From: Escherichia coli
GTDB taxonomy: Bacteria; Pseudomonadota; Gammaproteobacteria; Enterobacterales; Enterobacteriaceae
DNA: 64,000 nt
Direction: 5' to 3' (one strand)
Assembly (NCBI RefSeq): GCF_003991155.1
Contig: NZ_CP031293.1
A program made the position numbers and the translations under genes. Shown here piece after piece: positions 1,879 to 58,820 of the stretch (the first letter of the stretch is position 1; every line of letters starts with the position of its first letter). The notes beneath the pieces are model-generated. The model ran no database searches. It saw only the letters and a program-made list of their open reading frames with translations, and was not told the DNA's origin.

Positions 1879-3294
1879 TTATTTCAGCCCCAGGGCGGCT
1901 TTCATGGTGTAGAAGAGATCGGTCTGGTCGGTCAGTCCAACGACATTGGCGGCATGTGGGCCATACGCTGCAATACGCAACTGACTGCCGGTATGTTCTT
2001 GTGAATCCTCTTCGGAGTTCCCGTAACTCATCACCATCACTGCGCCATCTTTGGTATTTAGCGCCTGGGTGAGGCCCGGCGCTTTGGTGTCCGGCGCGAC
2101 AATCTGGCTGGCGTGGGCGTGATCAGCGGTGACTATGACCAGCGTGTTGCCATCCTTTTTAGCGAATTCCAGCGCACGTTGTACGGCTTCATCGAGATCG
2201 ACCGTCTCGCCAATTTGCCCACAAGGATTCGCAGCGTGATCCTGTTTATCGATTGATGCACCTTCAACTTGCAGGAAAAAGCCTTTCTCATTTTTACTCA
2301 ACAATTCAATGGCTTTGTCGGTCATCTGCGCCAGGGTCGGTACGCTGTCATTACGTTGCGGATTAGGTGTACAGGTGACTGCGGACTTATCTATATTACC
2401 GTGGTACGTTGCTTTCGGTCCTTGCCAGCGCACTGGCATATTGCCGTCAGCAAACAGTCCTAATAGGGGTTTTTGCTGATTCGCTTCCGTCACCGCATTT
2501 AGCGAGGCAGCATCGCTCACCAACTGATAACCACGCGCCAGTGCCTGTTCACGCAGCGTTTTTCCCTGCCATTCACCGGCGGTTGCCGTTTCAGCAAAGG
2601 TTTTTGCACCGCCGCCAAGCGTAACATCGGCACGGGCGTTAAGCAGCTGTTCGGTAATCGATCCTTTTCCGCCTTTTTCCAGAGCGTTACCCGGACATTT
2701 TTCACTGGTCGCACTCGGACCGTAGCATTTGCGCGAGGTCACATGCGCCACCAGCGCAGCGGGCGTGGCATCCTGCAACTCTGCGGTAGAAACGTTACCG
2801 GTCGCCAGACCTGCGGCTTTTGCCATTTCCAGAATCGTTGGGTGATCTTTTTCGTGAATATCGACGCCCAGCGCGCCGTTATAGGTTTTGACACCAGTTG
2901 ACCAGGCGGTTGCTGATGCAGCCGAGTCGGTGACGTAGTCCGGTTTGCCGGTTTTTTTATTCAGCGCATAGTGTGTGTATTGTCCGGTAAGCGGTAAGGC
3001 ATCGATACCTTTAAAAAAGCCGCCCGCACCTTCGGCATAATTGCGTGCGGCAGTAATTTCCGAGTCCCCCATCCCATCGCCAATCAGCAAAATAATATTT
3101 TTTGCAGGTTTATCGCTAAGAGAATCACGCAGAGCGGCGGTCTGATCACCCGTTAAGCGGCGAGCACCGCCGGGCGCAGTAATATCGCCCTGAGCAGCCC
3201 GGTTTTCCAGAACAGGCATTTCTGGTGTCCGGGCTTTTGTCACAGGGGAAAACAGTAACGGTAAGAGTGCCAGTGCAATAGTGCTTTGTTTCAC
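1879..3294 (-). CDS. phoA: Alkaline phosphatase
   Basis: 471 aa; GTG start (cac at 3292-3294 on + strand); signal peptide [20 protein letters not shown]; full-length match to PhoA. Confidence 0.97.
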
Positions 3295-3355
3295 TTTATT
3301 TTCTCCATGTACAAATACATTAAAAATAAAAACAAAGCGACTATAAGTCTCGGCC

Positions 3356-3654: not shown

Positions 3655-4116
3655 GTCTGTATTTCCTTATCCAAAGTATGGAGAAGTTAACATTATGTTT
3701 CACAACTTCATAGTGTCTGGAAGTATTATTTTTATGACAAAGGAAATACTTTGCGCAAATATTTTTTGTTTGATTACCAGCGAAACGTTTCTCTTATTTT
3801 AATAATTACCCACACAAAATATAGGCTTTTAATTATCAACCTTTATTATAAATAAAAGTTATGAAATATATTCTCTTCGTTAACTTATAATTAAGAGAAA
3901 AAAACTCACTGCATGGCCATACAAGCCAGGAATAAATTAGCTTCCCGTTCATCATTTTTGTGATCTTGCGCACATCATTGAGATAACGCACTTTCTTCAC
4001 CAGTACGTTGCACGCTTTGTCAGCAGAAGATTGCAACATTCTGTCAGAAGGCCGCGAATCCCCCGTTTTGTCGTGGTAATGTATGCACTTTGTGTTAGAC
4101 GGGATAGGTTTTTAAG

Positions 4117-10606: not shown

Positions 10607-13570
<2,964 letters not shown>

Positions 13571-14095
13571 TTGTCATCCCTCCTCAGGGACGTAATAAGT
13601 TGATCCATCAATTATCAATGCATAGAAAACATATTATGTTTCGCGTTTACGATTATGCGGCGTTATAGAGGAATGGTTCAATTATTCTTTCCTCTAAGTC
13701 CGATTGCGGACATATATAAAGCACGTGAACACACACAAAGAAAGAAATAACAAAAACACAATATTTCAATACGTTAATGAAAGCGTTAATTTTAAAATAT
13801 AGACCATGAAAATACAAAACACACAAAACAGACAAATAATGTATCAATAAGCAATGAACTTTAAGTCATTCACTTTTTGAAAACGTCACCAAATCTCCAA
13901 AAACAATAATCTATAGCTATAAATAAAAATTAAAAATATTTTCAATGAATATAAATTTATTGCTATTTCTATTACAAAGATGTCCTGACCTCTCATTCAT
14001 TCTCTTCTTGTCAACATCGCGACAACTTTCGTAAAACATCCCCACCCTGCTTCAGGTATACTATGCCCCTCGATTCCACAAACATCAGGCAGACC

Positions 14096-55661: not shown

Positions 55662-55677
55662 GCAGATAATTTACTCT

Positions 55678-55923
55678 CTACGTAATCAACCTGATTTGCC
55701 GGATCCCGACCATCGGCGATGATAGCCCCCGTAATGCGTGGTCCTTATTTCCGATAAGTTTACTTGAGTCTTTAGCTTCCCATTTCAGCCCACTCTCCCC
55801 TGTGTGGGCTTTTTTCATTGCTTTGACCCGTCCTGAATAGCCAAACAATGGCAATGTTTCACTTTGCAGGGATGATAATAAGGGGATCTGATTCAGAAGA
55901 GTTATGAAAAGTTGGACCGCCAT
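55678..55923 (-). CDS. yahM: Small uncharacterised protein YahM
   Basis: ORF-track frame to 55953; ATG at 55923 gives 81 aa MAVQLFITLLNQIPLL...; convergent with yahN (16-bp gap). Confidence 0.5.
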   Translation of the reverse strand: MAVQLFITLLNQIPLLSSLQSETLPLFGYSGRVKAMKKAHTGESGLKWEAKDSSKLIGNKDHALRGLSSPMVGIRQIRLIT

Positions 55924-56336
55924 CGAGGCCTCGAACCCCGTACCATACAACAATCCTGGTTGTCGTCTGCTCTTCCTGATGAGCTAATGGCGGTTTTTGA
56001 TATGAGCCTTACAGCATATTTTCTGTCAGGCTTGAGTGCGATACGTAAGATACAGAAAAGACCCCACACAAACATGATGGAATTATGATTTTTTTCATAT
56101 GAATGTCAACCCACACATTCACAAAACATCTGCATGAGATCATTTTTTTATACACCGTATAGCTGCGAAACCACTGCTGATGCTTTTTTAAGCGAAGCGT
56201 CGCCGATCACAACAAAATATCGGCGAAAAAGGCGGTGGAATGCCATTTGGCATACGGATATACAGATGAAATGATCACCTGCTTTGCGATTCACTCTCTG
56301 GTGGAATAACAACTCGCAGGTGGAACCCTTTCTGAA

Positions 56337-57152
56337 CTAAAGAGTGTAGCGGATTTTAACGTGCTTATTTACAGGATAATATCTGTCACCTAATTCCTGC
56401 ACTCTATTAGATATCCATTCATTTAATCGCGCATCATCTCTGTATGTTTTTACGTCCAGAACAGAGAGCAATAACCTCACCAGTGATTCAGGAAAAACAG
56501 GGTAGATATTTTTTAAGTGTAATAATAATCCATGCGCAAGCGCCTGCTTAATGGGCGCGTCGGTCTCCGGGATAGACGACATTTCGCGAAGCCATTTTTC
56601 CACATGCATACACTCTTTCCCTTTAGGGAAAAGTCTCAGCAAAGGCATATGGTGTTCAAGAAGAATACATTTGCAATCTGTTCGCACTGAATCGATAAAC
56701 TGCACTAATTTCTTAAGCCCGGTAAAGCGTCCAGCCTGCACATTTGCTTTAATATCAAGAAACGCATCATCCTGGTCATATACCCAAACTGTCCCTTTTT
56801 GATTTTCAAGTATGCGAAAAACAAACTTAACCGGGTGATCAGGGTAATCCATCCAGTCATAAAATCCAGGGAAATCATTAAACTGCACATTTATGGTGAG
56901 TGCGTTATCGTCTGACCACTCACAGTCTCGCACGGCTGCCATAAGATGAATGAGTTTGTCATCATCGACTAAATCATCACGACAATCATAAGGATAATCA
57001 TAATATTGTTTAATCAAAACCTTGAATATATCGACACAGGAAACCAGAGAGCTTTTGATATCCTCCGGTAACTGGTTGTTTTTAACCGTATTAAGTATGC
57101 TTTGTTGCGTATATGGCATCAAATTATTGTGTGGAGCTTTTAATGATATCAT
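56337..57152 (-). CDS. yahL: Uncharacterised acidic protein YahL (low-GC gene)
   Basis: 271 aa ORF with no recognisable motif; visibly AT-rich coding sequence. Confidence 0.7.
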   Translation of the reverse strand: MISLKAPHNNLMPYTQQSILNTVKNNQLPEDIKSSLVSCVDIFKVLIKQYYDYPYDCRDDLVDDDKLIHLMAAVRDCEWSDDNALTINVQFNDFPGFYDWMDYPDHPVKFVFRILENQKGTVWVYDQDDAFLDIKANVQAGRFTGLKKLVQFIDSVRTDCKCILLEHHMPLLRLFPKGKECMHVEKWLREMSSIPETDAPIKQALAHGLLLHLKNIYPVFPESLVRLLLSVLDVKTYRDDARLNEWISNRVQELGDRYYPVNKHVKIRYTL

Positions 57153-57394
57153 CGCGATCTCTCTTAAATAAAAATAAACGTCGCAGATAATAAAGCTCTG
57201 ATTAAACCAGGCACTATCAGAAATCGCTCATAACTAACGTGTGAAGTATTGTGTCCTGGAGGGAGTTAATTTAACAATTTGAATTTACGTTATAGGTTTT
57301 ACTGCTACTTTGATATTATTTCGCTCTCCTTAACTAAAAAGTTAAGTGGAGAGCGAAGTTAATATGTTAAACCACAGGATATTTATTAATTGTT

Positions 57395-58444: not shown

Positions 58445-58820
58445 TGTGTTTACTCCTGATTAGCTATGTGTATTTGGCGATGCCTGATATGTCATCGCGG
58501 CAAAACGCGTCCATTGAATATAGCCAATATTTAAACCACCCGATCCAGCCCCAACATGCCGCGAGCCTGAATGAAACAGAGCAGCAACGTTCCCCATAAG
58601 GCGAGCGCCTATAAGTGTGATATTTGCTATCCGTAAAAGACAAAAATCGGCAAAACTGATGATATTTTCACGTAGACAAATAGTTATCTACACAACGTCA
58701 ATAAGGGCATATTCTTCAAAGATAATGTCCATTTCTGCCGACACACTCATACTCAGGCCGCCCCACTCCCTGGGGCTTAAATCTCTTACTGTTCACCGTT
58801 GCAGATATATCAAGTTCGTA

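Follow-up and report, generated by a model that had tools for sequence, protein, structure and literature searches.

A tRNA-like element related to phage argN inside the xtpA transcription unit of Escherichia coli, beside the variably present gene yahL

Lambdoid and Shiga toxin (Stx) phages carry argN, a tRNA-Arg(UCG) gene whose canonical form, with an anticodon loop of 7 nt (CUUCGAA), reaches 53.6 bits against the Rfam tRNA model. In RegulonDB v12 (PMC10767902) the chromosomal gene xtpA of Escherichia coli is credited to Muto et al. 2022 (J Biochem 171:459), under a title that speaks of a leaderless mRNA with a tRNA-like sequence and of a small peptide affecting GcvB. Genomic islands at tRNA genes form a further group with which the locus described here can be compared. 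That locus is the interval 55662-57394 of a 64,000-nt stretch of an E. coli contig (NZ_CP031293.1, assembly GCF_003991155.1; hereafter the window, meaning the whole stretch). It belongs to the prpR-yahO-yahN ... yahK-yahJ region of E. coli, in an orientation reversed relative to K-12 and with 100% identity of the window to strain 2016C-3878, and it holds xtpA, an 81-nt tRNA-like element and the annotated genes yahL and yahM.

An earlier description of this interval, made from its letters only (hereafter the original prediction), presented it as a low-GC islet with two uncharacterised genes, yahM and yahL. We consider it probable that the interval is instead a composite of three unrelated things: an xtpA/tRNA-like module, an insertion that carries yahL, and a spurious yahM. 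Its most structured part is the transcription unit formed by the tRNA-like element and xtpA, which the original prediction overlooked. The anatomy of the interval, the homology and conservation pattern of its parts and the state of each open reading frame (ORF) are direct observations; the features concerned are listed below with their coordinates in the window, annotation being that of the Prokaryotic Genome Annotation Pipeline (PGAP) and of the K-12 record.

55678-55923, minus strand: annotated yahM ORF, 81 aa (PGAP and K-12 record); most likely spurious
55788-55815, plus strand: yahN intrinsic terminator, with a GCCCAC stem, a 10-nt loop, GTGGGC and T6 (read from the sequence)
55902-56075, minus strand: xtpA ORF, 57 aa, equal to b4845 in NC_000913.3
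55905-56131, minus strand: conserved promoter-segment-tRNA-like module, 227 bp (homology limits in yahL-less lineages)
55913-55993, minus strand: tRNA-like element, 81 nt (ARAGORN, cloverleaf fold, argN homology)
56109 to 56082, minus strand: predicted sigma-70 promoter, TTGACA-16-CATAAT (promoter scan, 11/12 consensus matches)
56132-57314, no strand: low-GC (~0.39) segment carrying yahL, ~1.2 kb (comparative mapping; right boundary approximate)
56324-57158, no strand: segment lost in the yahL-less E. coli allele, 835 bp (allele comparison)
56337-57152, minus strand: yahL, 271 aa (purifying selection on the frame)
57320-57358, minus strand: stable imperfect hairpin (folding compared with shuffles)

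The element at 55913-55993 is labelled tRNA-Ser(gga) by ARAGORN and folds as a cloverleaf with a 7-bp acceptor stem, a 4-bp D-stem and a 5-bp T-stem, in which every pair is standard. U8, A14, G18G19 and A21 are all present, as are the T-loop UUCGAGG, a U at the discriminator position and an encoded CCA. It is in the anticodon arm that the element departs from a tRNA: the distance from A26 to the T-stem is 27 nt, as against 21-22 nt in a normal tRNA, and the arm, which is longer by 4 nt, can be drawn either as 7 bp closed by a 6-nt loop or as 5 bp with a 7-nt loop after a 4-nt bulge. In the option with the 7-nt loop, the loop reads CAGGAUU and has A at position 33, so that U33 is lacking. Since the normal anticodon arm has been lost, the element cannot be an ordinary decoder.

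Similarity between the interval and any phage is limited to ~89 bp, and these correspond to the tRNA-like element. By BLAST it is 74% identical to genes annotated as argN (tRNA-Arg) in Stx phages and 85% identical (E = 4e-18) to an unannotated stretch that occupies, in phage phiP27, the argN slot flanked by ileZ and argO, with Q lying upstream of it and stx2e downstream; the phage homologue is thus a member of the ileZ-argN-argO cluster that sits between Q and stx. Canonical argN and the window element are alike in the acceptor stem (CCGCCAU/AUGGCGG), the D-stem, the T-arm, the discriminator U and the CCA. They differ in that the arm of the window element is 4 nt longer and without U33, that the window element has no match to the Rfam tRNA model, and that it stands alone on the chromosome, under its own promoter and with yahL and yahN as neighbours, and not in an ileZ-argN-argO cluster downstream of Q. 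Closer to it is the phiP27 type (hereafter P-type), which has in common with the window element (W-type) a derived D-loop, the 5' anticodon-stem sequence CAUCAGGAAGAGCAGACGAC and the 4-nt expansion of the arm, but which has a different loop sequence, ACGAUAACAGG, and is placed in phage tRNA clusters between ileZ and argO. The P-type was found in 15 IMG/VR contigs and in one plasmid (pHX138.261ft_1, where it is labelled tRNA-OTHER), and it does not match the Rfam tRNA model either; the W-type arm was found in none of 2.9 million viral contigs. Judged from these comparisons, the tRNA-like fold is a descendant of the lambdoid-phage tRNA-Arg gene argN. The sequence of the element had no match in the literature text searched. 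The P-type copies of phiP27 (4001-4082 of the locus extract) and of the IMG/VR contigs are unannotated and have an 11-nt anticodon loop.

Conservation across the genus sets this element apart from its surroundings. The exact 81-mer (0/81 differences) occurs in E. albertii (L024), in the SCPM-O-B-8794 species (L026, a separate Escherichia species in GTDB), in Escherichia sp. E1V33 (L027) and in Escherichia sp. MOD1-EC5350 (L038). In these sister lineages identity to the window is 93-100% for the promoter, 80-86% for the 82-nt segment between promoter and element, and 42-83%, with many gaps, for the 3' trailer; promoter and 82-nt segment taken together show 10-16% differences, and the flanks as a whole diverge by 10-20%. 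The contrast between 0/81 and the two flanks combined is significant in each comparison (Fisher P = 6e-4 to 6e-14), as is that with the upstream segment alone (P = 2e-3 to 6e-5), and if the 81 nt had changed at the neutral rate seen in the flanks, zero changes would have had a probability of 1e-4 to 1e-6 per lineage. The invariant block coincides with the tRNA boundaries.

The unit that is conserved is larger than the fold. Homology to the three lineages that lack yahL begins and ends at identical points (55905-56131), and in MOD1-EC5350 the DNA on both sides of this stretch is different, with an SNF2 helicase gene upstream and yahN ~40 nt downstream. The shared homology limits and the replaced flanks in MOD1-EC5350 together therefore define a 227-bp module composed of promoter, 82-nt segment and tRNA-like element. 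Within E. coli the element is present in 5167 complete genomes (95% of 5426), and 4821 of 5170 E. coli records carry the identical 81-mer. Two variants were located, and both preserve pairing: in O157:H7 a G.U pair of the T-stem is replaced by G-C, and in strain 6EVA the A6-U pair becomes G.U, a change which in XtpA is non-synonymous (I30V).

Two other changes within the element may be recorded here. In strain DETEC-S792 an IS1 insertion sequence lies inside it (L033, ~2569-3355), which makes this strain a rare natural knockout of both xtpA and the fold. The XtpA variant S54Y (cluster P0029, 126 contigs) corresponds to a change of the first C of the encoded CCA (55914) to A; the position is a non-pairing one, and the change could be repaired by the CCA-adding enzyme.

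The tRNA-like element is embedded in a reading frame. In the curated K-12 record (NC_000913.3) xtpA (b4845, "putative transcriptional regulator XtpA") is placed at 345252-345434, and this is the ORF 55902-56075 of the window, which covers the 82-nt segment and the entire element. The published and the window copy have an identical tRNA-like sequence and, but for the last three residues, an identical peptide: K-12 XtpA has 60 aa (MFVWGLFC...SNFSKLF) and the window copy ends at 57 aa by an earlier stop. A dismissal of this 57-aa ORF as unconserved was dropped in view of the curated K-12 record; the conservation result behind it stands. In the promoter scan the CATAAT -10 box ends 7 nt before the xtpA ATG, a geometry that is consistent with a leaderless transcript. 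An active promoter designated "yahMp" and repressed by integration host factor (IHF) has been reported in a massively parallel reporter study, whose text and supplements do not give its coordinates; no IHF consensus that would connect the xtpA promoter with the reported IHF repression was found near it, even with one mismatch. Among the matches listed, no E. coli record carries a PGAP RNA or tRNA feature at xtpA, and a few have an extra "hypothetical protein" under the match.

Could the peptide be the sole functional product, the tRNA-like sequence being no more than incidental coding sequence? In favour of this are the title chosen by Muto et al. 2022, the annotation in the curated record as a putative transcriptional regulator, a frame that is open in all E. 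coli sampled (57-60 aa) and in E1V33, and a promoter that suits a leaderless mRNA. We nevertheless regard it as unlikely on the basis of several observations: (i) codon 4 of XtpA is TAG in E. albertii, in the SCPM-O-B-8794 species and in MOD1-EC5350, i.e. in three of the four non-coli lineages, all with an element identical at 81/81 positions; (ii) the tRNA-like part contains 19.7 synonymous sites in the XtpA frame, at which 3.4-4.4 synonymous differences per species were expected and none was observed (joint P ~3e-6, with the expectation taken from the proportion of synonymous differences, pS, in the adjacent segment, and with three species that are not independent); (iii) the N-terminal 27 codons, which correspond to the 82-nt segment, have no coding signature, the differences being spread evenly over codon positions with a ratio of non-synonymous to synonymous proportions (pN/pS) of 0.5-1.06, no better than in the other two frames; (iv) the 6EVA change keeps the pairing of the fold at the cost of an amino acid replacement; and (v) XtpA matches no protein family, and the ORF was found in Escherichia only. 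The stops at codon 4 and the zero synonymous change in the element indicate that its invariance is imposed on the RNA (or the DNA) and not on the peptide. As for the reported effect on GcvB, direct pairing of the transcript with this RNA found no support: the duplex that the full-length transcript can form with GcvB is no better than with shuffled sequences; the best pairing of the GcvB R1 seed falls on the 5' strand of the anticodon arm (-19.2 kcal/mol), and 93% of random 300-nt segments of the window pair at least as well.

What the RNA may do can be proposed with less assurance than the composite nature of the interval. Our tentative suggestion is that an ancestor of Escherichia domesticated a phage argN, that decoding was lost with the expansion of the anticodon arm, and that the element has been kept unchanged ever since as a tRNA mimic within a transcript, the RNA and not the XtpA peptide being the object of selection. 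The sigma-70 promoter, the 82-nt segment and the 81-nt fold taken from argN would then make up an old, self-contained module of 227 bp. The fold retains what tRNA-handling enzymes recognise, namely an acceptor stem, a D/T elbow, a discriminator base and the CCA end, and the selected folded RNA would probably be a processing or stability module or a protein-binding tRNA mimic; as such it might serve as a signal for RNase P and the CCA-adding machinery, or as the partner of a protein that recognises tRNA. The leaderless XtpA frame is probably a derived, later feature, judging from the codon-4 comparison, and would have been added in E. coli by a change of codon 4 from TAG to TGG, and in E1V33 by a change from TAG to AAG.

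Several points weigh against this account. The tRNA-like element gets no match to the Rfam tRNA model RF00005 (gathering threshold 29 bits) even at E ≤ 10 in the 131 nt searched; the positive controls ileZ, argN and argO score 72.5, 53.6 and 70.1 bits, respectively. The P-type relatives show signs of decay: about half of the copies carry a mismatch in the T-stem (CCTGG), and in phage mEp460 the T-loop is destroyed, so that argN derivatives with an expanded arm can be non-functional. The conservation argument is built on a non-coli sample of four lineages which are mutually non-independent, and on a scan with exact 32-mers, which diverged copies in E. fergusonii, E. marmotae and others may escape. 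The title of the paper of Muto et al. 2022 attributes the phenotype to the XtpA peptide. Lastly, that part of the XtpA frame which lies within the tRNA-like element stays open in every lineage, and in E. albertii and MOD1-EC5350 gene callers annotate XtpA ORFs that are truncated at the N-terminus; a peptide might therefore be made from another start codon.

The same fold accounts for the annotation of yahM. The start codon of yahM (ATG at 55923) coincides with the AUG that the tRNA-like element carries in its 3' acceptor strand (CG-AUG-GCGGUCCA), and what looks like a Shine-Dalgarno motif, the GAGG 5 nt upstream, is part of the T-loop. The frame that starts at this ATG has 81 aa in E. coli proper and 31, 11, 17 and 14 codons in the four sister lineages; in O157:H7 it meets a stop at codon 12, and PGAP annotates another ORF there. 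Among E. coli alleles the ratio of non-synonymous to synonymous substitution rates (dN/dS) of yahM is at least 1.25, the differences falling mostly in codon positions 1 and 2; this ratio is computed from 3-9 differences per pair, which is a further point against our interpretation. The ORF also includes the antisense of the yahN terminator (55788-55815). In E. albertii and the SCPM-O-B-8794 species conservation of this terminator is 91-97%, and it gives a weak Rfam match aligned as stem plus U-run; its 10-nt loop exceeds the 8-nt loop limit of our terminator scan. From this anatomy yahM is most likely not a gene but a spurious ORF that falls in the xtpA 3' trailer, a by-product whose start codon and apparent ribosome-binding site are parts of the tRNA-like fold. 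The original prediction had called the reality of yahM uncertain, and this doubt was justified: the frame is truncated in all four sister lineages, is interrupted in O157:H7 and has no coding signature.

It is improbable, though somewhat less so than the proposals about yahL discussed below, that yahM is a young de novo gene of E. coli proper, translated from the xtpA transcript by way of the T-loop GAGG. The 81-aa ORF is intact in most E. coli examined, the GAGG is suitably close to the ATG, and the literature reports "yahM" RNA to be up 2.5-9-fold on epithelial adherence. Against this, start codon and Shine-Dalgarno-like motif lie within stable tRNA-like helices, the allelic differences and the truncated frames are as described above, the region is nearly absent in MOD1-EC5350, the ORF carries a terminator on its other strand, and transcription of xtpA explains the RNA induction equally well. 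A convergent overlap of yahM and yahN transcripts (an excludon) is also described in the literature, and we ascribe both the overlap and the induction to read-through of the xtpA transcript. Nearby lies the 3' untranslated region (UTR) of yahN (55662-55784), whose conservation in E. albertii and the SCPM-O-B-8794 species, at 86-93%, exceeds that of the xtpA 5' segment. This UTR, which overlaps with the convergent xtpA/"yahM" transcript, could be a 3'-UTR regulatory element.

In contrast to yahM, yahL behaves as a protein-coding gene. Compared with the 79%-identical orthologue in the SCPM-O-B-8794 species (L026) its dN/dS is 0.16 (dS 0.70, dN 0.11), and YahL evolves several times faster than prpR, yahO and yahK, for which dN/dS is 0.02-0.07. 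The original prediction saw in it an acidic product without a recognisable motif. Profile searches against Pfam, NCBIfam, PADLOC and PHROG gave no match, in agreement with the second part of this statement; as to the first, the protein is acidic only mildly (isoelectric point 5.99, with 38 D+E and 33 K+R). An exhaustive HMMER search of 1.84 billion representative proteins returned fragments of the E. coli type and one true distant homologue (P0020), which is 24-26% identical over the full length and comes from a different locus of one atypical "E. coli" genome; P0020 was absent from all 5426 complete E. coli genomes, and a search seeded with it yielded no further relatives. A structure model of moderate confidence (predicted local distance difference test, pLDDT, 68; predicted template modelling score, pTM, 0.67) is made up of helices at the N-terminus, a sheet of five strands and a bundle of helices at the C-terminus, the first ~20 residues being polar and predicted to be disordered; the model had no significant structural neighbour, and a sequence search of the PDB found no relative. 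On the pattern of substitution, yahL is a real protein-coding gene, an orphan that evolves fast. 

Candidate relatives were also rejected. A protein 50% identical to YahL (P0013) proved to be a frameshift-ridden E. coli assembly of the same locus. One paper groups YahL with YdjO and YjfZ/DUF2686 as E. coli/Shigella-specific proteins of ~265-271 aa; YahL is like them in size and in its restriction to E. coli/Shigella, but no sequence relationship between it and a DUF2686 protein could be detected, and the idea that it might be a hidden paralogue of the DUF2686 (YjiC/YjfZ-like) proteins was abandoned when BLASTP gave no match.

YahL abundance is reported to be <1 ppm (~6 copies/cell), and transposon insertions in yahL are reported to lower fitness. 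The gene is immediately upstream of the xtpA promoter and has the same orientation, and from this layout it is plausible that the fitness effect is a polar one on xtpA. In a genomic SELEX (systematic evolution of ligands by exponential enrichment) study, RNA polymerase holoenzymes bound strongly at a site inside yahL with sigma-28 (27.1), sigma-E (17.8) and sigma-H (5.6) (PMC5493296); this signal may simply reflect AT-rich DNA.

The genome that encodes P0020 (L005, 8001-8828) has this gene between yjiG and a 1350-aa intimin/invasin gene; downstream of P0020 come a gene for a type III secretion system (T3SS) class-II chaperone (TPR_3) and then one for an SseC-like translocator, with an IS256 remnant just downstream. 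Such neighbours, together with the polar, disordered N-terminus, AT-richness and fast evolution of YahL, would suit a remnant T3SS substrate or an effector-like accessory protein. We hold this to be very unlikely: the argument is contextual and comes from a single genome, YahL has no likeness of fold or sequence to known effectors, and the yahL locus is without secretion genes.

Both the low GC content and the exceptional AT-richness of yahL, as noted in the original prediction, were borne out by calculation. A windowed GC analysis gave 0.403 for the interval 55662-57394 against a mean of 0.521 for the window (standard deviation 0.044 among 1733-bp windows), and only 0.8% of windows of this size reach so low a value; yahL itself has a GC content of 0.393 and a third-position GC content (GC3) of 0.39, compared with GC3 values of 0.54 for yahK and 0.69 for yahJ. 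The sole other patch of the window that is as AT-rich (~12200-14000, GC ~0.40) is the start of an autotransporter outer-membrane protein gene adjoining hemB. 

The low-GC material has an identifiable history. A segment of ~1.2 kb, from 56132 to ~57314, is present in E. coli and in the SCPM-O-B-8794 species and absent in E. albertii, E1V33 and MOD1-EC5350; homology to all three yahL-less lineages ends at 56131, and an ancestral hairpin resumes at ~57315. A second event removed yahL from part of the species: ~1150 E. coli genomes lack exactly 56324-57158 and keep the rest of the inserted segment and the tRNA-like element. The missing 835 bp extend from a point 13 nt beyond the yahL stop codon to one 6 nt short of the start codon, and the junction shows no microhomology. 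In all, yahL is present in 4014 of the 5426 complete E. coli genomes (74%) and absent from 26%. We suggest that yahL, which would be weakly expressed, was brought in by this AT-rich insertion, immediately 5' of the xtpA promoter, once the lineage had separated from that of E. albertii, and that about a fifth of E. coli genomes would later have lost it by the 835-bp deletion. YahL has been proposed as a quantitative PCR (qPCR) marker of all E. coli/Shigella (PMC11057252); given its absence from 26% of complete genomes, a yahL-based assay would miss a large minority of strains.

The borders drawn in the original prediction did not survive this comparison. The 413-bp stretch that it took for a non-coding edge of the islet (55924-56336) is the spacer between yahM and yahL, in the interior of the interval, and is not devoid of content, as it contains the TTGACA-16-CATAAT promoter and the xtpA ORF with the tRNA-like element. 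The hairpin at 57320-57358 on the other side is real (-26.6 kcal/mol, z = -5.65, with 0/200 shuffles folding as well); it lies 37 nt downstream of the yahK stop codon and has no U-tract. Diverged copies with the same stem core are found in E1V33 and in E. albertii, both without yahL; the hairpin is therefore ancestral and does not mark the border of an islet. In E. albertii NBRC 107761 (L024, ~1350-1440) neither yahL nor yahK is present at this place, and the hairpin is kept together with a 23-nt relic of the yahK 3' end, which shows that yahK was deleted in that lineage. On the far side of yahK, in the space before yahJ (~58531-58605), there is a 75-nt pseudogene fragment which PGAP labels "hypothetical protein, missing N-terminus".

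The arrangement resembles that of tRNA-gene genomic islands in that AT-rich, variably present DNA lies beside a tRNA-type gene, the 3' side of which is highly variable between species. Unlike such islands, the yahL segment is on the 5' (promoter) side, 138 nt upstream of the element, and the locus has no integrase and no direct repeat of the tRNA 3' end. More generally, the annotated neighbourhood contains no integrase or transposase and no phage genes near the tRNA-like element, and no flanking or terminal repeats were found at the boundaries of the insertion or of the deletion. The horizontal origin put forward in the original prediction can be kept for yahL, which came in one lineage with an insertion of atypical composition.

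The further suggestion of a toxin/immunity or phage-defence function, for which the original prediction itself saw no direct evidence, found no support; in the form of a horizontally acquired mini-islet with yahL and yahM as a functional pair, we give it hardly more weight than the possibility considered last. Low GC, the variable presence of yahL among E. coli genomes and orphan proteins without a recognisable domain would all fit. But neither YahL nor YahM had a PADLOC match at E ≤ 1, and no conserved partner gene was seen: yahM is on another transcript, 413 bp off behind its own promoter, with an ORF that is not conserved, and the ~1150 genomes that keep the yahM region without yahL do not show the pattern of a type II toxin-antitoxin pair. 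Besides the lack of mobility genes or repeats and the position of the insertion 5' of the tRNA-like element, YahL was not found in phages, its plasmid occurrences are only F-prime-type elements or records that are really chromosomes, it occupies one fixed chromosomal site throughout, and its reported level is below 1 ppm.

Least likely of all is that the tRNA-like element is a decaying relic (a pseudo-tRNA or an old lambdoid attachment site) without present function: the failure of the Rfam tRNA model, the aberrant anticodon arm, the decay of the P-type relatives and a variable 3' side, as expected beside an integration site, could be so read, but the 81/81 identity in four lineages with flanks diverged by 10-20%, at the neutral probabilities given above, the fit of the invariant block to the tRNA boundaries, the conserved promoter and the pairing preserved in the located polymorphisms all argue otherwise, and there is no reason for a host to conserve an attachment site.

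Viewed as an islet with two unknown genes, the locus is ordinary, and every named part of the interval was already known or annotated, the tRNA-like stretch having been published as part of xtpA. Possibly new are the argN ancestry, a constraint on the RNA that does not depend on the peptide, the reading of yahM as an artefact produced by the fold, and the history of insertion and deletion of yahL. That PGAP propagates yahM and yet places no RNA feature at xtpA (among the matches listed) is a clear example of annotation inertia. An invariant RNA fold together with a peptide frame broken at codon 4 in three of four sister lineages challenges, or at least extends, the peptide-centred model of xtpA. 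If the link to argN is true, a phage tRNA gene would have been domesticated in Escherichia into a chromosomal RNA that does not decode.

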